Part shown: positions 43,694-64,000 of the stretch, piece by piece
Layout of the letters: each line of letters starts with the position of its first letter
Numbering within the stretch: the stretch's first letter is position 1
Assembly (NCBI GenBank): GCA_964602915.1
Contig: CAZRTB010000003.1
Coordinates: 146,809-210,808 of the forward strand
Origin: an uncultured Gammaproteobacteria bacterium
GTDB lineage: Bacteria; Cyanobacteriota; Vampirovibrionia; 2-02-FULL-35-15
Direction: 5' to 3'
Length of the DNA stretch: 64,000 nt
Notes under the pieces: generated by a model
What the model was told of the DNA's origin: nothing
Database searches by the model: none
What the model saw: the letters and a program-made list of their open reading frames with translations, nothing else
Translations under genes and position numbers: made by a program

Positions 43694-46600
43694 ATGACTA
43701 TTAGAACAGCCTTATCATCTGCCTTAAGTGTGATCGCTGGAAGAACTAGCCCTTCCAGTCACATAGCTACTAAAGGAGTCCCTGTACATAGAAGAGGGTT
43801 TTTAACCTCATCTGCATTAGCCCTAGCATTTTTTAGCACACCAGGAATAGTTCGTGCAGAAGAATCAACACCCATAACTGCAAAGGCAGAGGAGACTTCT
43901 GAACTAAAGCAAAAAGTAGTAGAGTTTTCATCCCAAGCATTAAATGAGTTAAAACCAGCACTTTTATCAAACAATCACAATGAAATAGTAAAACTTCCAA
44001 ACGCTTCCATGCATTGGAACAATTTAGGTATTGCATTTAATGTCACTGACAATACTGGTGTAGACATTGATGAACATAGAAGACTCATTCTCAAAGCTGG
44101 ACTTACAAATCCTAATATTCCTAAATGGATTTTACATGAAGCGATCTATACTGCGGGGAAAAGAGCAGAGTATTTAAATTCACAACCTCAAACGAAAGAA
44201 CATATAGATAGAGAAACATTAGCAATAGTTTTAGAATATTTTAATAAAAATATCGTTCCAAACGATGTCATTGGATTTTCCGTAGCTCAATTATGTGACC
44301 AAGACTCCCTAAATTCAATCTCAGACATTTTCATTAGCAATAGATCTTCTAACAGAGATAAATATTTTGATATTTTTGCTTATGTCAACCAAAATAGAAG
44401 AGTTAGACTTGCAGAAAAAACAAATTTAGAAATCATTAAAGACTTAGAACAGATACTCAGTGGAAAAGAGAATTTACTGTTTGCAAATAACTCAAATGGA
44501 GAACCTGAATTAAATCTTACAGAGAATAAAGAACGTGTAAGTCAGCTCGAAAAAATGTACTTTGCAAAAGGATTACTATCACTTATAAGAAATGATATAG
44601 ACGCAAAGAAATGTTCCTTATATATATCCAACTATTTCAAAAACAAATCTCCAAAAAGCACTAGTTCAGATGCTGACTATACAGTAATAAGAGCCCTTGC
44701 TGAACTTTCTATAAAACATCCACAAGAACAAAGTCTTGTTGATATTTTAAAAGAAGTATCTACAACACATTCTGAAACATTTTTTAACTCTTACTTCTGT
44801 GCAAATGCAACTCCTCTAAACTCTATACAAAGTGAAGCAGGCAAAGCAATAGCCAGACTTTTTAACTCAAATCAAACACTAGCAGATGTAATCCTTCTTA
44901 ATGCATTATCAGCTCCAAAATCAAAGAGTCAAGCCATTCAAGCTATTGCTTCATTGAACTGTCTTTCATCAAAACCTGGATTTATAAATATTTTACGAAC
45001 AACTGTCACAAATACAGAAGAGTCTCCCCAAGCCAGAGTAGCATCTATGAGAGGATTAGGCAGGATAAAAGATGAAAAAAGCTTTGAGGCATTGCTTGAC
45101 ATAGCAACAAATGAATCAAACCCTGCTTTCCTAAGAGGTGAAGCTCTTTATACAACATTATTAGTAGATGCTCCAGAATTTATACCAAAAGAGTTTGAAA
45201 GGCTTGCTAATGAATCTCGTCCTTATGGACTAGAATTGTTTTTCTTTGGGCTAAATGTAGATGCAGATGTAAAATATATTCCTTGGGAATGTAATCCAAA
45301 TATTTTTTCTACTTCTTCTACACCCACTGCAGAAAATGTATCCTATTTCCTAGATAGATTGGATCAAAAGTATGGTGGAAGCACTGGGAAATTAGCAAAC
45401 TTTTTAAACAGTTCTGACAAATGGAAAAAGTACATAGCATCTATAGCAGACTATTTAAGATCAAAGCATTCAGACATTGCAACTAGCGGTAGTGTTTTAG
45501 ATTTTGATATTGCTATTCCAGCCATATACTTTCTTGGACATACAGGTACTAATTCAGACCTGTTAGCAAGTATTGCAAAGACTCCATGGGATTATGTCTG
45601 CGATTCAAACCCAAAACAAGTTTTCACAGAAGCACGCGAAGATAATGCAAATGAATTTCTTTTAAAATTCGCATCGATACAAGCCCTTGGAGGTGCAGTA
45701 GACATAAATAATTCACATGATGAAGGAGCAAAATTATTATTTAGATTAATCACAAAAGAAACTCACCCTTCACTGTATCAAGAAGCAGTATCATCTGAGC
45801 TTCAAATATCAGAAAGAATTAAAAAATCTCCATCAGCATCAGCAAGAAATGTACATGTAAAAAATCTTCTTAACTTCTTAGAGAAGGATATTTTAACCCC
45901 AAGTACTGAACCAATAATTGATTTAAAATCCATTGAAAGAAGAAGATATTTTGCATGCAAATCATTAGTAAATATGTCAGCTGAAAAAGAGTTAATCGAG
46001 TTGGCTTTCAAGCACAACTGGGTAAAAAAAGGTGATGAAATATTTAGAATCATTGCATATGCACTAAAATCAAATGATTTTAAAATCTCAGATCTTGCGA
46101 ATTTAAATTTGTCTGATACTCAACAAGCTCTCTTTAAAGATTTATATGACTGCATAGCAAGTGATAGATGTTTTGTCGGAGATGCAATTGAAGAGAACAA
46201 TTTAACTGGAGATGGTATAGAAATAGCAATTATAGATGGTGGATTCCCTATGTTTTTTGAAGGGGAGATTAAAACTCCCTATAATATTATTTATCCAAAA
46301 GAGTATTTTGGACCATCAACATATGACTTAAAAAGCAAACATGCAAGAACAGTCACTCATCAAGTATTAGAGAAATTACCAAAAGTTACAATCCATCCAC
46401 TTACATGGGATAGAATTACAGCTTCTCAGGATTCACTGCTTTCAAATGATCGGTTTGATCCAGCAACTCAGGGATTTATTGAACTTTTAAAAGGAAAAAT
46501 AACCGGAAAAAACAATATTCAAGTTATAAACATGTCATTTGGTGTAAAAAGTCCAGGAATGTCAAACAATCAAAAGCACAAAGACTATGTAAATAGAAGA

Positions 46601-47134
46601 GCGGCCGCTGGGCATTTGGCTGTTGATCTTGGGATAGGGTGTAACGTATCAGTAGGAAATGATAGATCTGCAGACCCTGTCACTAGTAGAAATATGGAGC
46701 TTGGAGGAGTAAATGCTCTGCTTGCTTATGTAGGACATGGAAAAAGATTCACTCAACCTGGTGGAGTTTCAAGAGTTGCTTCATATGATAATTTTAGAAA
46801 TCGATTTGTAGAAACTTCCGGCTCACAAGATCCATTGAACTCTTCTAGTATTACCCTTATTGGAGTAAATGGCTATACAAATGTCTGCCATCAAAGAATA
46901 AGAGGAAAAGAAACCACTATTATGTACTCAGCCACTTCATTTGCTGTCCCAAATAAAGGTGTGATCGACATCATGAGTATTGAACTTTTAAAAAGAAAAA
47001 GAATAAAATTTGACCCAATAAAACATAATCGTTTAATAGAACAAACAGCAACCACAGATGAAAACAGAGATCCTCATGAAGGAAATAAAGTTTTTTCTTT
47101 AATCAATTTTCTATCAGCATTAAAAAATCAGTAA
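43694..47134 (+). CDS. Large protein: twin-arginine-like leader, HEAT-like repeats, divergent C-terminal S8 subtilase
   Basis: HRRGFL; ARVASMRGLGRI and LRGEAL; IAIIDGG, HARTV, INMSFG, VGND, ATSFAVP. Confidence 0.7.
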   Translation: MTIRTALSSALSVIAGRTSPSSHIATKGVPVHRRGFLTSSALALAFFSTPGIVRAEESTPITAKAEETSELKQKVVEFSSQALNELKPALLSNNHNEIVKLPNASMHWNNLGIAFNVTDNTGVDIDEHRRLILKAGLTNPNIPKWILHEAIYTAGKRAEYLNSQPQTKEHIDRETLAIVLEYFNKNIVPNDVIGFSVAQLCDQDSLNSISDIFISNRSSNRDKYFDIFAYVNQNRRVRLAEKTNLEIIKDLEQILSGKENLLFANNSNGEPELNLTENKERVSQLEKMYFAKGLLSLIRNDIDAKKCSLYISNYFKNKSPKSTSSDADYTVIRALAELSIKHPQEQSLVDILKEVSTTHSETFFNSYFCANATPLNSIQSEAGKAIARLFNSNQTLADVILLNALSAPKSKSQAIQAIASLNCLSSKPGFINILRTTVTNTEESPQARVASMRGLGRIKDEKSFEALLDIATNESNPAFLRGEALYTTLLVDAPEFIPKEFERLANESRPYGLELFFFGLNVDADVKYIPWECNPNIFSTSSTPTAENVSYFLDRLDQKYGGSTGKLANFLNSSDKWKKYIASIADYLRSKHSDIATSGSVLDFDIAIPAIYFLGHTGTNSDLLASIAKTPWDYVCDSNPKQVFTEAREDNANEFLLKFASIQALGGAVDINNSHDEGAKLLFRLITKETHPSLYQEAVSSELQISERIKKSPSASARNVHVKNLLNFLEKDILTPSTEPIIDLKSIERRRYFACKSLVNMSAEKELIELAFKHNWVKKGDEIFRIIAYALKSNDFKISDLANLNLSDTQQALFKDLYDCIASDRCFVGDAIEENNLTGDGIEIAIIDGGFPMFFEGEIKTPYNIIYPKEYFGPSTYDLKSKHARTVTHQVLEKLPKVTIHPLTWDRITASQDSLLSNDRFDPATQGFIELLKGKITGKNNIQVINMSFGVKSPGMSNNQKHKDYVNRRAAAGHLAVDLGIGCNVSVGNDRSADPVTSRNMELGGVNALLAYVGHGKRFTQPGGVSRVASYDNFRNRFVETSGSQDPLNSSSITLIGVNGYTNVCHQRIRGKETTIMYSATSFAVPNKGVIDIMSIELLKRKRIKFDPIKHNRLIEQTATTDENRDPHEGNKVFSLINFLSALKNQ

Positions 47135-55135: not shown

Positions 55136-55506
55136 AATTTGCAAATTAAAAACTTCAATAATAAAATTAACTTTTTAATATTTTATACACTTATTAATAT
55201 TAAATTTCTCTCATCAAAGATAAGAATATTTGAGTAAGACTATTCCCTAAATTAAATATGTTTAAGATAGAGAAGGAGGCAAAAGAAAAAATTAAACTAT
55301 ACATACTGATAAATGCCTTATTTTTAAATAATTGAAGATCTATTATAAGCGCAATACAGATTTTTGTTTTACATTATTACCAATTTACTTTATATCAATA
55401 GTATATAGAATTAATCAGAGTATTTCTCAATAAAGTTTTTATTGTGAGATTTAACCTTGAAAACTATCTTATAAAATCGTTTTTAAAAATTTATTTTAAT
55501 AATCGT

Positions 55507-58500
55507 ATGAATAAGGGAACAAAACTAAAAATCTTTAAAGGGATATTAAGCGTATTCTTTATTATCCTTATAAATTTCCCAACTTTTGCACTGTTTGATG
55601 TGAATGTAAAAAATCTCTTTCATATTCCTGGCCTAAATATTACTTTTAAACTAGATGCTCCACAAAACCAACTTGCATATGCCCAAATCATAACCTCAAA
55701 TGCCTGTATCGATGGTATTGACAATGATGGTGATGGTTATATCGACGGAAACGATCCATCATGCTTATCAGTACTAGGAACATCAGAATCACCTGTTAAT
55801 TCTGCACCAAATTGCATTAACAGAGTTTCTGTTCAAGACGAATATTCATTATTAAAAGCAAATACTGATGTATATTTTCACAGAACATCACATCATCCAA
55901 ATGACAATGACTGGGTTATAGCAAGCGATAATAAACCCTGGGGAAATGCTTTAGTTACAGATCTAGATCTTGCCCAATTCCCTCTTCCACAAAATGGTAT
56001 CCCAACAACACCAAAAGCATTAGTAATAGTAGGAAGCAATGTTTACTTACATAATGACTTAAGAGATTTTGTCACTAATGACTGGATAAGTTTAAATTTT
56101 AATAAGCCTTGGGGAAACAGTGTCCTTACCAGCGTAAGCTTAGCGCACTACAATACACTAGCTAACACTTACATAAGGGGCTTAGTATCAACAGCAAACA
56201 TGGTTTATTATTTCACCACTAAACCAGGAACTGCTTATCCAGCAAACACATGGGTTGATGTAAGTGATAATTTACCTTGGGCTTCTGCCATCATCAAAGA
56301 TGCTGACATTAGTGGTCAAGGAAATGCAATTCTTACCATTCCAACTGGAGTTATTTATGTACACGATAATATAGAATCTATAACAACATCAAACTGGGCT
56401 ATCGGCGCAAATCAAGTTTCTTCCAGTGGAGCTCAAAGAATTGATCTAGAATTCAGACCAGGAATAGCATCTAATCAAAGCAATGTTTTTTATAGCCTAG
56501 CTCCTGCATTTCCAGGATATCCTTGGACTAGCATAAACGATAATAAACCCTGGGGAAATAGTTTAATTGATGATGTTTCTGTATTTTTCTGGTCTCAAGT
56601 CGAACCATGGAACACTCCTGCTGTCACACAAATTGTAGCTGGTAATAAGCCTTATTATCACTTAATGCCTGAAGCCATCAGCACTGATAACTGGTTTGAT
56701 GATAGCGACAATCAGCCATGGAACTTAGTAGGCGGTGCATGTAACCCTTGTTCAAATAATCAAATTTATTGCAATAATACCTGTGTTGATGGTAATTGTT
56801 GTAGTAATGCAAACTGTACCAGTGGACAAACCTGTTCAAACTACACTTGTCAATGTCCAGTAGGACAAATTTATTGTGGTGGAATGTGTGTAAATGGTTA
56901 TTGTTGCTCTAATGCTGATTGCCCTAGCGGTACCTCCTGTACTGGAAACACCTGTGTATTAAATACTAGTGGTTCATGTCCTCAAAATACTAATGTATAC
57001 AACTTCTCTGTTTCATGCCCAACATCTGCACAGCTGTGTACTACTCAAGGAAGTACAACTATTAACCTAATAAATTCCTCACCTCTTACATTTACTTACA
57101 CAACACCAAACTCACATTGTTCATCAGTCAGAATATACGTCAGAGTAGATGGAAACCTTATAACTACAAGTCCTTACCTAGGATACCTTGGCGATCCTCA
57201 AAATAGACCAAGAACTTTTGGACCAGTAAATCTAGGTACGTATCCAGCTGGCAATCACACTATAACAATTCAAGCAGAAGGAACTCCAGGTGGCTGTAAC
57301 ACTGGCACTTTAGCTTCATGGGGCGGCACTGCTATAGTTTCTGCTCTATATAATTGTAACTGCCCAGGAGGACAAATTTCTTGTAGTAATGTTTGTGTAA
57401 CTGGGAACTGTTGTACTAATGCTCAGTGCACTTCTGGTCAAACTTGTACAAATAACTCATGCTCATGTCCACCTGGACAGATTTTATGTAATGGTGTTTG
57501 CATGGTAGGAAATTGTTGCACTAATACTCAGTGCACTTCTGGTCAAACTTGTACAAATAACTCATGCTCATGCCCACCTGGACAGATTTTATGTAATGGT
57601 GTTTGTACTTTAGGAAACTGTTGCACTAATGCTCAGTGCACTTCTGGTCAAACTTGTACAAATAACTCATGCTCATGTCCACCTGGACAGATTTTATGTA
57701 ATGGTGTTTGTACTTTAGGAAACTGTTGTACTAATGCTCAATGTACAAATGGACAACTCTGCTTAAATAACACATGTACAAATCCTGCTCCATGTAACAT
57801 ATTAGGCTATTGGAAATATGATGAAGCTCAAACAAATACAACAGCAAGTGATTCATCTACAAATAACAACAACGGCACTTATTTCAATATGCCTCAAACC
57901 TCAACAGATGTACCAGTTTTAATGTTTGCTAACTCGGCAAGCAGAAGATTCTTTGGTTCACAATATGTAGAATTTATTAATGAACCATTCTTTGACTTTA
58001 ATAATCTTGAAGATTTAACTATTTCAGCATGGGTCAAACAAGACACTATTAAGAGTGCTTTATTAAATCAAGTAATTTTAGGCAAAGGTAGAAACTATCA
58101 GTTAAGTATTAAAGGAAACACAATCTTATTTTCTTATAGTTCTAATGGCACTACATTTAATGAAGTCTATACTGCAAACGCTAATCTACAGGCAAATGCA
58201 TGGCAACACATAGTAGTTAAATATAAGATTTGTGATGGTTCTTCTATTCGAGTATTTAAAAATGGTATTTTACAAAGTGGGGCATGGACTACCGGTACTG
58301 GAAGCAATGCTGTGTTCTTAAACAATGATCCACTAGTTTCAGGAGCAAGCAAGATCAGTGGTGTTTTAGCTGATTACTTACAACAATATACTTACTTAGA
58401 TGATATAAGAATCTGGAGAAGAGCTTTATCAGACTGTGAAATCCAATCCTTATCAGCAGGAAATGATATAACCTGCCCTCCAAATAACTGTCCTGTATGC

Positions 58501-61500
58501 CAGTCAGGTCAAATACTATGCAACAGCACTTGTGTCAACGGTAATTGTTGTAATAACAATCAATGTCCAGGGGGTCAAGTTTGTTCAAGTAATGTTTGCG
58601 TACCAGGCACATGCCCTAACATCAATGCATATGCCGATGAAATTACTGCAAACTCACCAGTTGTAGCAAATCTACCAACTGATGTATTAGGTAATCCAAA
58701 CTTAATGTCTGCTGACTTTGACACAAATGGTGCTCAAAATGGTTTTGTCACTGTAATGTTTAATGGAAATCATAAAATTATTGATTTATCAGGAAATGAT
58801 TTAGCAATTCATTTAGTAGACTTCTATACTGCAGAGCCTAGCGAAGGGTTTGAGGTTTTAGTCAGCAACAATGGAGTAAATTTTGTTTCTCTTGGAACTA
58901 GGAATCCGACTCTAACAACATCCCAGCCAACTGTTGAAAGTTTTGATCTTGCTGGAAGTGGATTAACAGAAGCTATATATGTAACAGTAAGAAACCTATC
59001 AAATCAAAATCTTACCCACATAGGTCCTGATATTGATGCAATCGAAGCAATACACACAGCAAGTTGCCAGTGTCTTCCTGGTCAAATAATTTGTAATGGC
59101 TCATGTATAACTGGAAATTGCTGTTCAAATGCTAACTGTACTTCAGGACAAATCTGCTCTAACAATATTTGTACCTGCCCAAATGGTCAAGTTCTTGTAA
59201 ATGGAATGTGCATAACTGGAGACTGTTCGACAAATGCTCAATGTACTTCAGGAGCTACCTGTACAAATAATTCTTGTACTTGTCCACAAGGTACTGTTTT
59301 AGCTAATGGTGTATGTATTCCTGGAAACTGTACGACAAACGCTCAGTGCACCTCTGGACTACTCTGTATTAATAACAACTGTTCTTGTCCTCCAGGTCAA
59401 ATCATTGTTAATGGACAATGTATTCCTGGTGACTGTATAACTCAATCTCAGTGTACTTCTGGTCAGTCGTGCATCGGAAATAGCTGTACCTGTCCATTTG
59501 GTCAAATACTCGTTAATGGTATGTGTATTCCTGGAAACTGCGCTACAAATGCAGATTGCACTTCAGGTCAAGTTTGCATAAATAATATTTGCTCTCTAAC
59601 ATCTAGTGGATGTCAATCCGGACAATTAATGTGCTCAAACTCCTGTGTAACTGGTAATTGCTGTACAAATGCTGACTGTACTTCTGGTCAGACTTGTTCT
59701 AATAATGCTTGCTCATGTCCTCAAGGTCAAATCTTAGTAAATGGCATGTGTATCCCAGGTGACTGTACTACAAACTCTAACTGTACTTCTGGTCAGGTCT
59801 GTTTAAACAATAACTGTACATGTCCTCAAGGTCAGATCCTAGTAAATGGCATGTGTGTCCCTGGAAACTGTGTAAATAACTCTCAATGTACATCCGGTCA
59901 AACCTGTGTAAATAATTCTTGTACGTGTACTTCAGGTCAAATACTGGTAAATGGTGCTTGCATCATTGGAGACTGTACTACCAATGCTCAATGTACCTCC
60001 GGTCAATTCTGTTTAAACAATAACTGTACCTGTCCAAATGGTCAGATTTTATGTAATGGTTCATGTGTAACTGGAACTTGCTGTAGCAGTAATCAATGTT
60101 CAGGGGGTCAGCTCTGCACTAATAACACTTGCGCATGCCCACAAGGACAGATACTAGTCAATGGTGTATGTGTAACTGGTAACTGTACAAATAATTCTCA
60201 GTGCACTTCTGGTCAATTATGTTCAAACAATAATTGTTCATGCCCTTCTGGAAATATTTTATGCAACAATTCCTGTACACAAGGTAATTGCTGTTCAAAT
60301 GCTAACTGTACTTCTGGTTTAATTTGTTTAAATAACTCTTGTACATGTCCTTCTGGAACGATCTTATTAAATGGTGTTTGTATCCCTGGAAATTGTATAA
60401 CCGTAAATGACTGTACTTCAGGTCAGGTTTGTTTAAGCAATAACTGCTCATGTTCTTATGGTCAGATTTTTGTTAATGGAATGTGCATAACTGGTAACTG
60501 TACTACAAATGCTCAGTGCTCATCAGGTCAAGTTTGTACTAATAATATATGTTCCTCAACGACGACCTCATCATCTGGCTCAACAACTTCATCTTCATCT
60601 GGTACTGGTTGTTTAGGTGGACAAGTACTTTGTAATAATGTTTGCGTAAATGGAAATTGCTGTGCAAATGTAGACTGTACTTCAGGTCAAATTTGTTCTA
60701 ATAATTCTTGTACATGCCCTCAAGGTCAAATTTTTGTAAGCGGAATGTGTATAACTGGAACTTGCACAACAAATTCTCAATGTACTTCAGGTCAAATTTG
60801 CTCTAATAATTCCTGCACATGTCCATCTGGAACCATATTAGTAAATGGTATTTGTGTTCCTGGAAATTGCTTAACAAACTCTCAATGCACTTCAGGTCAA
60901 GTTTGTTCCAATAATAACTGCTCATGTCCTCAAGGTCAGATCCTTATTAATGGATTATGTATACCTGGAGATTGTGTAACTCAATCTCAGTGTACTTCTG
61001 GTCAGTCGTGTATTAGTAACACTTGTACCTGTCCTTCTGGACAAGTTTTAGTAAATGGTATGTGTGTTCCTGGAAATTGTGTAACTTCTGCTCAGTGCAC
61101 TTCAGGTCAGATCTGTATAAATAACATTTGTTCTATATCATCGAGCGGATGCCCACAAGGTCAAATCTTCTGCTCCAATTCATGTGTAGCTGGTAACTGT
61201 TGTTCAAACTCTCAGTGTACTTCTGGTCAAACATGCTCAAGCAATCTCTGCTCCTGCCCTCAAGGACAAATTCTTGTTAACGGTACTTGTGTTATTGGAG
61301 ATTGTACATCAAATTCTCAATGTACTTCTGGTCAGCTTTGTACTAACAATAATTGCTCATGCCCTCAAGGTCAAGTTTTAGTTAATGGTATTTGTATACC
61401 AGGTAACTGTGTAAATAATTCTCAATGTACTTCTGGTCAAACTTGTTCAAACAATAACTGCGTATGTACCTCAGGTCAAATACTAGTTAATGGTGTTTGT

Positions 61501-64000
61501 GTAACAGGAAACTGTACGAATAATTCCCAATGCACTTCTGGTCAGCTTTGTACTAACAACAATTGTTCATGCCCTCAAGGTCAAATACTTTGCAATGGTC
61601 TATGTGTAACAGGAAACTGCTGTAATAGTTCTCAGTGTTCTGGTGGTCAGCTCTGTACTAATAACTCCTGTGCTTGCACCTCTGGTCAGATATTAGTGAA
61701 TGGTGTTTGTGTAACAGGAAACTGCACAAATAATTCCCAATGTACTTCTGGTCAAACATGTTCAAACAATAATTGCTCATGTCCTCAAAACCAAATACTC
61801 TGCAACACTTCATGCGTAACAGGTAATTGTTGTTCAAATTCTCAATGTACTTCTGGTTTAACTTGTTCAAATAATTCATGCTCATGTCCTCAAGGTACAA
61901 TCCTCTTAAATGGAACATGCATTCCAGGGAATTGTATAACTGCAAGCAATTGTACTTCCGGTCAAATCTGTGTAAGCAATAACTGTGCTTGCCCATCAGG
62001 TCAAGTGTTAGTAAATGGTACCTGCGTCCCAGGTAACTGTACAACTAATGCTCAATGTACATCTGGTCAGATTTGTACCAATAATACTTGTTCATGCACT
62101 TCAGGTCAGATTTTAATTAATGGTACTTGTGTTGCTGGATGCACAACAAACTCTAACTGTACATCTGGTCAAATATGCACAAACAACATTTGCCAATGCC
62201 CATCAAATCAAATTCTCTGTAACAATGCATGCTTAAACGGTAACTGTTGTACCAACTCACAATGCACTTCTGGTCAGATTTGTACAAATAACTCATGTTC
62301 ATGCACTTCAGGAACAGTTTTACTAAATGGGGTTTGCCAAACCGGAAATTGTATAACTAATGCACAGTGCACATCAGGGCAAATCTGCATCGGCAACTTA
62401 TGTACAAACCTTATCCCTCCAGTAATCACTTCACCTTCAGATAACTCCTCTACAAATGACAACACTCCAAATATATCTGGAATAGCACTCCCTGGAGCAA
62501 CAGTAAATGTATATGATGGAATGACATTACTAGGAACAACAATAGCTGACGTAAATGGTTCATGGACATTTACTCCATCGACACCACTACCTGATGGTGT
62601 TCATCAATTTAGTGCAACTCAAACAGTAAATCCAACAAGTGGATTTTCAAATGTAGTTAATACTACAGTTGACACTTCTTCACCAGCACCAACAATTACT
62701 TCACCTGTAAATAATTCAACAACAAATGACAATACCCCTACAATTACCGGAATGGCTGAAGCTAATTCTACAGTTCAGGTTTTTGAGGGAGTAACTCTGC
62801 TAGGATCTGTAATGGCCGGAGGGGGGGGTAACTGGTCATTAACTCCATCATCAGCACTATCAGATGGAAGTCACACAATATTTGCTAAAGCTACTGATGT
62901 TTTAGGTAACGTAAGTCCAAATTCTTCTAACACTACATTTAGTATTGATTCAAGCGCTCAAGCACCAACAATCACTTCACCTTCAAACAATTCAACAACA
63001 AATGACAATACCCCAACAGTCTCTGGTATGGCTGAAGCTAATTCTACAGTTAACATATACGATGGAATGACATTGCTTGGTATGACTACTGCAGACAATT
63101 CTGGGAACTGGTCATTCACCAGCGGTATTTCACTCGGCGATGGTGGACATCCTATCTCAGCAAACTCAGTAGACATTGCAAATAATACAAGTCCATTTTC
63201 TAATACAGTAAATATTATTATTGATACAACTCCACCTATACCCCCTGTAATTACTTCACCTACAAACGGCTCAACGACTAATGACAACACTCCAACAATT
63301 ACCGGAAATGCAGAAGCTGGATCAACTGTTCAAATCTTTAATGGAATGACATTAATCGGAGCTACTACTGTAGATCAAAATGGTTCATGGTCATTTACAC
63401 TAACAAATCCTCTGTCCGATGGAACCTATACATTTACAGCCACTGCAACTGACTCAGCAAACAACACCAGCGCTTCATCAACTGCAGTGACATTTACTAT
63501 TAACACTACTGTTTCAGCACCAGTAATCACTTCACCTTCAAACAACTCTACAACCAATGACAACACTCCAACAATTATGGGTACATCACAACCAAATGCA
63601 TCTATTGAAATATTTGATGGGGCAAATTCTCTTGGTATGACAACTGCTAACGGTTCAGGAAACTGGACATTCACGCCAGTCTCACCACTTGGAGATGGAA
63701 CTCATCAGTTCATTTCAAGAGCAACTTTCAACTCAGTTCTCAGTCCATTCTCTAACATTGTAAATGTAACAATTGACACCGTAATTCCAAATCCTCCAGT
63801 AATTAATTCTCCATCTAACAACTCTATTACCAATGACAACACTCCTTCAGTATCTGGAATAGCTGAAGCCAACTCTACAGTAACCATTCTTATTGACGGA
63901 AACAATCTATTTGGAACGACAATGGCTGATGGAAGCGGGGCATGGTCATTCACTCCAATTAATCCATTATCAGATGGATCACATATATTCTTAGCAATAG
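55507..64000 (+). CDS. Giant secreted Cys-rich, LamG and Ig-repeat surface protein (3' partial, over 2830 aa; not in track)
   Basis: Frame +1 is open from ATG 55507 to the window end; signal-peptide-like MNKGTKLKIFKGILSVFFIILINFPTFA; CIDGIDNDGDGYIDGNDPSC loop; domains listed separately. Confidence 0.95.
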   Translation, partial: MNKGTKLKIFKGILSVFFIILINFPTFALFDVNVKNLFHIPGLNITFKLDAPQNQLAYAQIITSNACIDGIDNDGDGYIDGNDPSCLSVLGTSESPVNSAPNCINRVSVQDEYSLLKANTDVYFHRTSHHPNDNDWVIASDNKPWGNALVTDLDLAQFPLPQNGIPTTPKALVIVGSNVYLHNDLRDFVTNDWISLNFNKPWGNSVLTSVSLAHYNTLANTYIRGLVSTANMVYYFTTKPGTAYPANTWVDVSDNLPWASAIIKDADISGQGNAILTIPTGVIYVHDNIESITTSNWAIGANQVSSSGAQRIDLEFRPGIASNQSNVFYSLAPAFPGYPWTSINDNKPWGNSLIDDVSVFFWSQVEPWNTPAVTQIVAGNKPYYHLMPEAISTDNWFDDSDNQPWNLVGGACNPCSNNQIYCNNTCVDGNCCSNANCTSGQTCSNYTCQCPVGQIYCGGMCVNGYCCSNADCPSGTSCTGNTCVLNTSGSCPQNTNVYNFSVSCPTSAQLCTTQGSTTINLINSSPLTFTYTTPNSHCSSVRIYVRVDGNLITTSPYLGYLGDPQNRPRTFGPVNLGTYPAGNHTITIQAEGTPGGCNTGTLASWGGTAIVSALYNCNCPGGQISCSNVCVTGNCCTNAQCTSGQTCTNNSCSCPPGQILCNGVCMVGNCCTNTQCTSGQTCTNNSCSCPPGQILCNGVCTLGNCCTNAQCTSGQTCTNNSCSCPPGQILCNGVCTLGNCCTNAQCTNGQLCLNNTCTNPAPCNILGYWKYDEAQTNTTASDSSTNNNNGTYFNMPQTSTDVPVLMFANSASRRFFGSQYVEFINEPFFDFNNLEDLTISAWVKQDTIKSALLNQVILGKGRNYQLSIKGNTILFSYSSNGTTFNEVYTANANLQANAWQHIVVKYKICDGSSIRVFKNGILQSGAWTTGTGSNAVFLNNDPLVSGASKISGVLADYLQQYTYLDDIRIWRRALSDCEIQSLSAGNDITCPPNNCPVCQSGQILCNSTCVNGNCCNNNQCPGGQVCSSNVCVPGTCPNINAYADEITANSPVVANLPTDVLGNPNLMSADFDTNGAQNGFVTVMFNGNHKIIDLSGNDLAIHLVDFYTAEPSEGFEVLVSNNGVNFVSLGTRNPTLTTSQPTVESFDLAGSGLTEAIYVTVRNLSNQNLTHIGPDIDAIEAIHTASCQCLPGQIICNGSCITGNCCSNANCTSGQICSNNICTCPNGQVLVNGMCITGDCSTNAQCTSGATCTNNSCTCPQGTVLANGVCIPGNCTTNAQCTSGLLCINNNCSCPPGQIIVNGQCIPGDCITQSQCTSGQSCIGNSCTCPFGQILVNGMCIPGNCATNADCTSGQVCINNICSLTSSGCQSGQLMCSNSCVTGNCCTNADCTSGQTCSNNACSCPQGQILVNGMCIPGDCTTNSNCTSGQVCLNNNCTCPQGQILVNGMCVPGNCVNNSQCTSGQTCVNNSCTCTSGQILVNGACIIGDCTTNAQCTSGQFCLNNNCTCPNGQILCNGSCVTGTCCSSNQCSGGQLCTNNTCACPQGQILVNGVCVTGNCTNNSQCTSGQLCSNNNCSCPSGNILCNNSCTQGNCCSNANCTSGLICLNNSCTCPSGTILLNGVCIPGNCITVNDCTSGQVCLSNNCSCSYGQIFVNGMCITGNCTTNAQCSSGQVCTNNICSSTTTSSSGSTTSSSSGTGCLGGQVLCNNVCVNGNCCANVDCTSGQICSNNSCTCPQGQIFVSGMCITGTCTTNSQCTSGQICSNNSCTCPSGTILVNGICVPGNCLTNSQCTSGQVCSNNNCSCPQGQILINGLCIPGDCVTQSQCTSGQSCISNTCTCPSGQVLVNGMCVPGNCVTSAQCTSGQICINNICSISSSGCPQGQIFCSNSCVAGNCCSNSQCTSGQTCSSNLCSCPQGQILVNGTCVIGDCTSNSQCTSGQLCTNNNCSCPQGQVLVNGICIPGNCVNNSQCTSGQTCSNNNCVCTSGQILVNGVCVTGNCTNNSQCTSGQLCTNNNCSCPQGQILCNGLCVTGNCCNSSQCSGGQLCTNNSCACTSGQILVNGVCVTGNCTNNSQCTSGQTCSNNNCSCPQNQILCNTSCVTGNCCSNSQCTSGLTCSNNSCSCPQGTILLNGTCIPGNCITASNCTSGQICVSNNCACPSGQVLVNGTCVPGNCTTNAQCTSGQICTNNTCSCTSGQILINGTCVAGCTTNSNCTSGQICTNNICQCPSNQILCNNACLNGNCCTNSQCTSGQICTNNSCSCTSGTVLLNGVCQTGNCITNAQCTSGQICIGNLCTNLIPPVITSPSDNSSTNDNTPNISGIALPGATVNVYDGMTLLGTTIADVNGSWTFTPSTPLPDGVHQFSATQTVNPTSGFSNVVNTTVDTSSPAPTITSPVNNSTTNDNTPTITGMAEANSTVQVFEGVTLLGSVMAGGGGNWSLTPSSALSDGSHTIFAKATDVLGNVSPNSSNTTFSIDSSAQAPTITSPSNNSTTNDNTPTVSGMAEANSTVNIYDGMTLLGMTTADNSGNWSFTSGISLGDGGHPISANSVDIANNTSPFSNTVNIIIDTTPPIPPVITSPTNGSTTNDNTPTITGNAEAGSTVQIFNGMTLIGATTVDQNGSWSFTLTNPLSDGTYTFTATATDSANNTSASSTAVTFTINTTVSAPVITSPSNNSTTNDNTPTIMGTSQPNASIEIFDGANSLGMTTANGSGNWTFTPVSPLGDGTHQFISRATFNSVLSPFSNIVNVTIDTVIPNPPVINSPSNNSITNDNTPSVSGIAEANSTVTILIDGNNLFGTTMADGSGAWSFTPINPLSDGSHIFLAI
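55840..56730 (+). repeat. About 6 W-x4-DNKPWG repeats, probable beta-propeller
   Basis: WVIASDNKPWGN, WISLNFNKPWGN, WVDVSDNLPWAS, degenerate WAIGANQV, WTSINDNKPWGN, WFDDSDNQPWN. Confidence 0.65.
56749..58602 (+). repeat. Three short blocks of 35-aa 8-Cys repeats
   Basis: 2 units at 56749-56958, 4 at 57361-57780, 1 at 58498-58602; unit CPPGQILCNGVCTLGNCCTNAQCTSGQTCTNNSCS. Confidence 0.95.
57793..58470 (+). other. LamG-like jellyroll domain within the giant protein
   Basis: GYWKYDE...ASDSS, TISAWVK, WQHIVV, FKNG, LDDIRIWRRALS..EI. Confidence 0.9.
59071..62406 (+). repeat. Array of 31 Cys-rich 35-aa (105-bp) repeats
   Basis: Hand translation: 9 eight-Cys and 22 six-Cys units, three Ser/Thr/Gly linkers; unit 29 is 34 aa. 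Confidence 0.95.
62413..64000 (+). repeat. Bacterial Ig-like repeats (Bap/SiiE type), 5 complete plus most of a sixth
   Basis: P.ITSP.N.STTNDNTP...G.AE..STV.I.DG...G...A...G.W.FT....L.DG.H units of 90-93 aa. Confidence 0.92.

Follow-up and report, generated by a model that had tools for sequence, protein, structure and literature searches.

A giant cysteine-rich protein of a Vampirovibrionia bacterium, a candidate exported fibre with an N-terminal head cluster on an EB-like stalk

What kind of protein is encoded by a frame that opens near the end of a long stretch of bacterial DNA and meets no stop, and how might such a protein leave the cell? The stretch, called the window here, is 64,000 nucleotides long and corresponds to positions 146809-210808 of contig C3 (CAZRTB010000003.1) of a Vampirovibrionia genome (GCA_964602915.1, here G000). 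The genome comprises 24 contigs and 2.39 Mb, is 94.8% complete and has a guanine-plus-cytosine (GC) content of 32%. On the forward strand of the window a frame is free of stops from GTG 55444, or from ATG 55507, to position 63999, as had been stated in an earlier note on this DNA, in which the product was described as a giant extracellular-matrix-like protein. The frame continues unbroken to the last base of contig C3 and has at least 3629 residues counted from ATG 55507, of which 369 (10.2%) are cysteine (Cys). With a somewhat better than even chance, the product is a Sec-exported, disulfide-locked and probably glycosylated fibre, in which a cluster of N-terminal heads is carried on a stalk of EB-like units and immunoglobulin-like (Ig) repeats, and which would serve as a multivalent adhesin or recognition fibre.

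In the proposed mechanism, the leader would carry the chain across the inner membrane. The EB-like units of 34 residues, at least 50 in number, would then lock in the oxidising periplasm or outside the cell as two-hairpin modules, each with three or four disulfides. Together with at least seven calcium-type Ig repeats and with Ser/Thr linkers that are probably O-glycosylated, these units would form a stiff stalk, the length of which may be put at well over 100 nm if the typical sizes of such modules apply. The stalk would hold a six-bladed propeller, a LamG domain and two further domains away from the cell.

The leader occupies residues 1-45 (55507..55641), as judged from the translation and from homologous leaders. 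It is followed by a Cys-closed acidic loop, CIDGIDNDGDGYIDGNDPSC (residues 67-86; 55705..55764), which by its pattern, read directly, is of the DxDxDG calcium-binding type. Residues 100-412 (55804..56742) are predicted to be a beta-propeller by fold. The AlphaFold2 model of the head, calculated from a 10-sequence alignment, had a mean predicted local distance difference test score (pLDDT) of 76 and a predicted template-modelling score (pTM) of 0.74, and it is all-beta from construct residue 75 onwards; the first 70 residues of the construct, including the acidic Cys loop, were modelled at a pLDDT below 50. The top rows of a Foldseek search with this model were propellers (UVR8/RCC1, WD40 and the designed Pizza6, TMt 0.70), with a best expect value (E) of 1.2e-9 and TMq values of 0.36-0.48, except for two haemopexin rows at about 0.26. 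Six DNKPWGN-like motifs suggest that the propeller has six blades. There was no Pfam match on residues 100-412.

A search with the head construct returned 494 proteins at E up to 0.001 among 1.84 billion representatives. Eight of the best 150 of these 494 matches cover the propeller, and the other 142 align only around the acidic Cys loop. Among the same best 150, the loop-type matches often repeat many times per protein, and even the most repetitive acidic-loop protein matches no Pfam family. All eight propeller-covering matches are metagenome singletons. Two of the eight are about 1350 residues long and carry DUF11 repeats, with the head placed directly after the signal peptide. By inspection, one of these two contains an LPQTG motif, and its C-terminal segment is hydrophobic. 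No relative was found when the single head sequence was scanned against a collection of genome contigs. The propeller head thus appears, from these searches, to be very rare and new. The distribution of homologues, a check proposed in the earlier note, could be followed for both the head and the Cys-rich array described below: the head occurs in one of 40 relative genomes (G009, 51% identity, likewise at a contig end), and the array in 4 of the 11 same-family genomes and, in the rest of the class, in 2 of 189.

Three more domains are interspersed with the Cys-rich units. The first, between Cys units 2 and 3, has 135 residues with four Cys (residues 484-618; 56956..57360) and had been described as a beta-sandwich; it matches no Pfam family at E up to 1, and its best PDB sequence has an E of 0.23. 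The second is a LamG or concanavalin-A-like lectin domain (57778..58497), recognised by Pfam as Laminin_G_3. This family matched at 61.4 bits (E 1.4e-16) and 67.8 bits (E 1.5e-18), the cut-off being 27.6. The third, between Cys unit 7 and the array, has 157 residues ending in ...GPDIDAIEAIH (residues 1032-1188; 58600..59070) and is called DIDAI here; it matches no Pfam family, and its best PDB sequence has an E of 0.53. The named language-model clusters nearest to DIDAI are F5/8 type C, Sad1_UNC and DUF5000, at 0.75-0.77, a weak lead that points towards galactose-binding-type sandwiches. In all, three Pfam families were found on the window protein, namely EB (PF01683), Big_13 and Laminin_G_3. 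The order of domains given in the earlier note was recovered for the signal segment, loop, propeller, Cys units, LamG domain and six Ig starts, but its beta-sandwich and DIDAI domain have no sequence match in Pfam or the PDB. When the whole architecture (region 45-1215) was compared with 8000 scored candidates of 1568-4991 residues, there were two weak matches, and no protein of matching architecture was found in this size range.

The Cys-rich units conform to the pattern C-x6-[C/x]-x3-C-x4-C-[C/x]-x4-C-x5-C-x4-C, which spans 34 residues. A regular-expression census found 38 of them in the window. Units 1-2 (residues 415-483; 56749..56955) have eight Cys each, as do the near-identical units 3-6 (residues 619-757; 57361..57777). 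Unit 7 lies at residues 998-1031 (58498..58599), and the remaining 31 units of 34 residues form an array (residues 1189-2299; 59071..62403), in which flavours with eight and with six Cys are mixed and which is also picked up by Pfam EB and TIGR04201. Sixteen units with eight Cys and 22 with six amount to 260 Cys, so that the count and the order 2+4+1+31 reported earlier are exact. The array holds an internal duplication of about 500 residues, the two copies of which are 76% identical.

The two variable Cys of the unit, Cys8 and Cys18, follow a simple rule. The contig-long frame has 50 units, and both Cys are found in 21 of them, neither in 29 and one without the other in none. Five further units, on the ends of contigs C1 and C5, all have both. 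The two positions are thus present or absent together in 55 of 55 units, which is what a Cys8-Cys18 disulfide would produce. The nearest neighbour is of the opposite flavour for nine of the 54 units that are 34 residues long.

An AlphaFold model of three consecutive units, calculated from an alignment of 25 three-unit windows, had a pLDDT of 90 and predicts two beta-hairpins per unit. No significant structural match was obtained for the model. With Foldseek the best E was 0.055, for the epidermal-growth-factor (EGF) domains of uromodulin and NELL, Pfs25/28 and TNFR repeats; the best VIA Z was 2.8 (Pfs25), and Z was at least 2 in 9 of 48161 chains. The unit profile had no matches among PDB sequences at E up to 0.01. 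EB (PF01683) matched the window protein at 309.9 bits (E 2.1e-94) in 14 stretches, with a gathering cut-off of 24.3. A search of the genome with PF01683 gave 16 matches, of which 14 were over the cut-off, five of these only together with in-frame neighbours. Thirteen of the 16 begin at position 20, 21 or 26 of the profile and extend to 52; the other three cover positions 1-52 by spanning about 1.4 units. Because the matches mostly cover positions 20-52 of a 52-position profile, the bacterial unit can be regarded as a compact version of EB. The TIGR04201 family (Myxo_Cys_RPT) matched the units at 61.7 bits in eight stretches, the cut-off being 25. This family has 17 matches in the genome, 14 of them in the giant gene, two in a giant on contig C2 and one on contig C10.

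The array is succeeded by Cys-free Ig-like repeats of about 92 residues (62404..63999), which match Pfam Big_13 in six stretches (E 6.3e-73) and the NCBIfam family Ca_tandemer (NF033510; 167.3 bits, cut-off 50). There are seven starts of such repeats in the contig, six of them in the window, where the sixth repeat is cut by the window end. Past the window, contig C3 adds an odd module with 10 Cys, 12 more units and six linkers of Ser, Thr and Gly that total 233 residues.

A repetitive gene of this length could owe its form to the assembly. The head region is held by eight public runs from three studies of freshwater and drinking water, with 0.56-0.96 of the sampled words found, and no RNA run is listed among those that contain it. 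Between them, the public contigs of four runs span every one of the 30 bins of 55400-64000; they differ at six single letters, and insertions or deletions are absent. Their lengths range over 61-2160 bases, and their ends fall at repeat borders, including those of Cys units 3-6. Joints within them are few and have sides of only 21-35 letters, and repeats or paralogues may cause them. One such joint, in runs X2 and X5 of a single study, connects 59672 to 62166, skips 2493 bases and has 15 other letters in between. Its shorter side is 21 letters long; variation in repeat number, a paralogue or an artefact of the repeats could explain the joint.

The short-sided joints, the breaks at repeat borders and the fact that the gene stops at a contig break inside a repeat are what would be expected if the gene were an assembly artefact or in decay, the array being mis-assembled or chimeric, or the frame being interrupted past the contig end. 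Such an origin is very improbable for 10.9 kb that are open in one frame in a genome of 32% GC. Since the runs of three studies agree without insertions or deletions, the near-identical sequence of the window gene may be taken as real and intact where it is visible. Three-unit windows are 56-82% identical to one another, so that the repeats have diverged, yet every core Cys is kept. Moreover, complete genes of such a kind are present in a relative (G004), with products of 2982 and 3790 residues. The GC content is about 0.30-0.33 outside the giant gene and 0.38-0.39 across it, a rise that is presumably due to coding rich in Cys, Gly, Ser and Thr.

The N-terminal leader bears on the route of export. 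Its Lys-rich start is followed by a hydrophobic segment, ILSVFFIILINF, and by a conserved motif, NFPTFALFDVNVKNLFHIP. The signal sequence was judged by inspection, and the leader is probably a Sec signal combined with a family-specific sorting or processing motif. The first 45 residues match 32 places in 12 of the 41 genomes searched, G000 included. The leader is present in all 11 other genomes of the same family and in none of the 29 genomes of other families of the class, and most of the matches sit at the starts of very long open frames. Twenty of the 32 places were fetched for an alignment, in which 19 were anchored together with the window sequence; L040 was left out, its motif being visible by eye. 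ATG 55507 is supported as the start because 20 related leaders begin at an equivalent Met. The consensus is M.K..K....K...SL..IFL.NLPTL.AF.INY.NLF.IP., in which ten positions reach 80% identity or more; the majority of these ten lie behind the hydrophobic core. The 21 aligned proteins with this leader, from 12 genomes, have open frames of 235-5127 residues, and 16 of them exceed 1000 residues. A site resembling AxA-Q/E occurs downstream of the leader, at +23 to +49, in eight of the first ten sequences measured. No Pfam or NCBIfam model matches the leader.

Four proteins of G000 begin with the leader: the product of the window gene, two giants of 3918 and 4211 residues and a subtilase of 741 residues. 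As far as the genomes compared indicate, a leader common to the giant proteins of one whole family is new. That giants share it makes their export route testable. A more ambitious proposal would have the leader, with the AxA-Q/E-like site that often lies 23-41 residues behind it, serve as the address label of an undescribed pathway in this one family of non-photosynthetic relatives of cyanobacteria, by which giant disulfide-rich glycosylated proteins are processed and carried across the outer membrane, with a stalk module that shares descent with nematode EB. This extension is doubtful and is put forward tentatively.

The earlier note had suggested that the C-terminus be sought in the adjoining DNA. 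The frame runs off contig C3 within a GSTTSS-type linker, and a candidate tail is found on contig C1. Only one contig end enters in the matching frame, namely the end of C1 on its reverse strand, where 1515 residues are open from the edge to a stop. This piece opens with linker types that are also found in C3, and its units are preceded by a '...SSSSGSII-CGSGQIV' junction, as in C3. It also contains Ig-like repeats, a LamG domain (E 2.2e-19), four units, two odd Cys modules and an end of about 270 residues. The neighbours of the tail on C1, among them the genes for LpxI, a cytochrome c peroxidase and a nuclease, include neither a transporter nor a Dsb gene.

The Ca_tandemer match brings to mind the adhesins of the Bap, SiiE and LapA type. 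These type I secreted Ig adhesins have no N-terminal Sec signal; they are Cys-poor, have a C-terminal secretion signal with RTX repeats and are encoded next to ATP-binding-cassette (ABC), membrane-fusion-protein (MFP) and TolC genes. If the giant protein belonged to them, its hydrophobic segment would not be a Sec signal, export would take place through an ABC/MFP/TolC system and the disulfides would form outside the cell. The protein does share with Bap, SiiE, LapA and MpIBP (NF033510) the Cys-free Ca_tandemer/Big_13 repeats, the size and the logic of a fibre with binding domains, and four TolC-like genes are present in the genome. It differs from them in its signal-type leader, in the N-terminal position of its heads and in a Cys content of 10%, which is unlike that class. 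At their extreme N-termini, 21 proteins share the Lys-rich and hydrophobic leader. Neither RTX nor any other Pfam or NCBIfam family was found on the candidate C1 tail, which is itself uncertain, and no ABC or MFP genes occur in the flanks examined. Type I secretion is accordingly the least probable of the readings considered, and the preference of the earlier note for the Sec route is in agreement with the N-terminal signal segment, as seen by inspection and in the conserved leader.

A Sec-exported protein of a diderm would have to be oxidised in the periplasm or beyond it and to cross the outer membrane. The genome encodes three secretins and four TolC-like genes (nine domain matches in four full-length frames and a weak one in a fifth), which together with LpxI indicate that the organism is a diderm. 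It also encodes two DsbA-like Thioredoxin_4 proteins, one with an N-terminal hydrophobic segment and a CPFC motif, the other with CPFS. The disulfide dependence claimed in the earlier note is made plausible by the concordance of Cys8 and Cys18 and by the putatively exported DsbA-like protein with CPFC. Directly downstream of a DsbA-like gene on contig C7 there is a small frame (L020:2231-2831, + strand) with a signal-like start and repeats, GEGKCGADKKAGEAKC. Its product is an odd Lys/Gly/Cys-rich repeat protein, putatively exported; part of the stretch reads X or N. Glycosyltransferases of the PMT_2-type GT-C class have 11 matches in the genome, 10 of them over the cut-off, and none adjoins the giant gene. 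O-glycosylation of the Ser/Thr linkers is a reasonable prediction from this gene content.

The relatives of the Cys-rich array suggest a different use for the protein. Among proteins of 1568-4991 residues there were 54 matches to the array. PF01683 is found in 36 of them, and those named are all from nematodes; the rest comprise one from Phytophthora, 13 proteins with carboxypeptidase regulatory domains (two named Archangium), three relatives from the same lineage and one other bacterial protein. Aligned with the nematode giants, the array shows 25-30% identity, and 71-100% of its length is covered, with E down to 1.5e-61. For a C. elegans protein, the identity was 27% and E was 1e-31 (BLASTP, composition-adjusted). 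By inspection, the myxobacterial array proteins P0181, P0184 and P0188 have lipoprotein-type signals (…AASC, …AAGC and …VAC), and P0206 ends in a Cys with a hydrophobic and Arg-rich tail. Judging by the myxobacterial signals, arrays in other bacteria seem to come with recognisable membrane anchors, which the N-terminus of the window protein does not have.

With nematode EB extracellular proteins as the closest relatives of the array and no anchor found, the giant could be a structural protein of a matrix, sheath or coat, released or only loosely attached, the heads of which would serve for self-assembly or cross-linking. Cys-rich proteins are typical of the extracellular matrix, as the paper on the myxobacterial protein TraA states (PMC3325183), and the genome holds at least six giant mosaic genes. 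Nevertheless, such a role is unlikely. The layout of the protein is polar, in that distinct heads are gathered at one end and followed by a uniform stalk, which is typical of adhesins and unlike lattice-forming coats. The propeller head is also found on proteins that look surface-anchored, and the family of the Ig repeats is one of adhesin repeats. A fibre that presents its heads away from the cell therefore remains the preferred reading.

Several observations weigh against this reading. The gene is cut by the contig end, and its continuation from C3 to C1 rests on linker similarity: the C3 end, compared with all other contig ends, has no suffix-prefix overlap and no shared 25-mer. A second fragment, at the start of contig C5 (L003:2-1978, - strand), encodes the N-terminal 659 residues of a paralogous secreted protein, in which a signal peptide, two LamG domains and a single unit with eight Cys are recognised; it runs off the contig start, adjoins flagellar genes and could own the C1 tail instead. 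With no DNA overlap and a rival fragment, the join, which would give about 5100 residues or more, can only be inferred. No one public-run contig spans the repeat array, leaving the order of the units unbridged, so that their number and order rest on the present assembly. The candidate tail has no hydrophobic end segment and matches none of the NCBIfam families at E up to 0.01, and its end of about 270 residues has a weak language-model lead to IPT/TIG (0.92) and nothing in Pfam. There is no sign of a membrane anchor, a sorting tag or a domain that binds the cell wall, also on the candidate C-terminus, and no exosortase was found in the 94.8%-complete genome. Neither DsbB nor VKOR was found there, so that the re-oxidation partner of the DsbA-like protein is missing. 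In a tree of the units built without the two variable columns, the flavour switched as few as three times, corresponding to one to three independent pairs, which makes the evidence for a Cys8-Cys18 pairing modest. No transporter lies in the flanks examined, either beside the giant gene or beside the candidate tail, and Dsb genes are likewise absent from both places; as had been noted before, a route across the outer membrane is not evident. Finally, none of the heads has a known ligand, and two of them have no assigned fold. The attachment to prey or host that the earlier note had proposed was not borne out, as nothing shows predation and the gene occurs in freshwater and drinking-water metagenomes.

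The window gene is one of several giants in its genome. Two others, L051:243-11999 (- strand) and L052:66-12701 (+ strand), encode 3918 and 4211 residues. Two more, L053:536-16936 (+ strand) and L054:241-8850 (+ strand), run off contigs C2 and C6 and encode at least 5467 and at least 2870 residues. These four carry Vgb-lyase-type and Kelch propellers, TIG and PKD repeats, a LamG domain and an N-terminal S8 subtilase, and two of the four begin with the leader of the window gene. In the relative G004, a cluster of about 60 kb (G004:C1:387382-449348; L016-L019 and L026-L028) contains about ten mosaic giants of 609-3790 residues, seven of which have the shared leader. Their domains include FG-GAP, Kelch and Vgb-lyase-type propellers, S8 subtilase, He_PIG, Lcl_C and LamG; EB units and Ser/Thr linkers occur as well, and no C-terminus is common to them all; complete genes among them include those of 2982 and 3790 residues. 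The head domains of the window protein and the candidate C-terminus had no BLASTP match to these giants at E up to 1e-3.

Upstream of the giant gene, the window contains housekeeping genes for glycerol kinase, MetH, a FAD oxidase, Hsp33 and DAHP synthase. As a single taxonomic marker, MetH has its nearest named match, at 76% identity, in a protein labelled Candidatus Melainabacteria bacterium. A frame at 43694-47134 (+ strand) encodes a protein of 1146 residues with a weak hint of HEAT repeats below the Pfam cut-off; no relative was found when six peptide patterns from it were scanned against a collection of genome contigs.

The interest of the locus lies in several directions. It is poorly understood how diderms bring giant disulfide proteins, once these have folded in the periplasm, through the outer membrane, and the surface biology of Melainabacteria is almost unstudied. 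The leader flags candidate export substrates across the family and thus offers a concrete handle for comparative genomics and reporter fusions. The Ser/Thr-rich giants would be likely targets of the glycosyltransferases that face the periplasm, of which this genome has an unusually rich set. The EB module, which is regarded as an animal module, appears to have a compact bacterial counterpart, and this bears on the origin of extracellular-matrix modules. The principle of a lectin-type head on a Cys-rich stalk, known from TraA, would be extended to another phylum in a tenfold larger and multi-headed form.

Among known systems, the leader may be compared with ESPR of autotransporters and TpsA proteins and with YSIRK and KxYKxGKxW of Gram-positive surface proteins, which are conserved motifs in the signal peptide or beside it that mark very large exported proteins. 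It differs from ESPR and YSIRK in that its conserved block follows the hydrophobic core and that it is confined, among the 41 genomes, to one Vampirovibrionia family. A second parallel is offered by the giants of the uncultured Omnitrophota, which have N-terminal signal peptides, sometimes with an S8 subtilase near the N-terminus, and sit beside a conserved secretion locus, according to a preprint (10.1101/2023.11.21.568195). The leader-bearing giants of G000 and G004 also carry S8 domains; in contrast to what the preprint describes, no conserved secretion locus was seen beside the window gene. The text of the preprint makes no mention of cysteine or of Melainabacteria, and disulfide occurs there only in the title of a reference. 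Literature searches on giant, cysteine-rich or adhesin proteins of Melainabacteria or Vampirovibrio gave no match on such proteins among the matches listed. Those on EGF-like disulfide-rich bacterial adhesins gave nothing closer, again among the matches listed, than a preprint on CglD.

The units themselves resemble those of nematode EB proteins, for example the C. elegans 'EGF-like domain-containing protein' P0166, in matching PF01683 above the gathering cut-off. The bacterial unit has 34 residues compared with about 50 in the EB module and mostly covers profile positions 20-52; 21 of the 50 units have eight Cys and 29 have six. Common descent with nematode EB is not shown by this match, because the similarity is dominated by Cys, Gly and Asn. 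Among the matches listed, the literature on EB (PF01683) as a protein module concerns animals.

The closest parallel in design is TraA of Myxococcus xanthus, a receptor for outer-membrane exchange, which has a signal sequence, a PA14 lectin head, nine Cys-rich repeats and a MYXO-CTERM tag, and on which TIGR04201 was defined. Pathak et al. (2012; PMC3325183) proposed that the Cys-rich repeats form a rigid, disulfide-bonded stalk that presents the lectin head. The window protein likewise has, as judged by inspection, a type I signal followed by a head and by Cys-rich repeats, and TIGR04201 is found in both. As the units match a family defined on the Sec-routed TraA, the design of a head on a Cys-rich stalk is already in print. 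The earlier note had asked whether its architecture was already characterised, and the answer is divided: no protein of the same architecture was found among those of 1568-4991 residues, but the principle has been published. The differences from TraA are considerable. PA14 is not one of the Pfam families found on the window protein, which instead has a propeller, a LamG domain, two further domains, at least 50 units, Ig repeats and linkers. It comes from another phylum, and neither MYXO-CTERM nor another tag was found on its candidate tail on C1, the true C-terminus being beyond the contig. By analogy, the giant protein may work like TraA without being a TraA, and what appears to be new is the scale of an EB-like stalk outside animals and myxobacteria.

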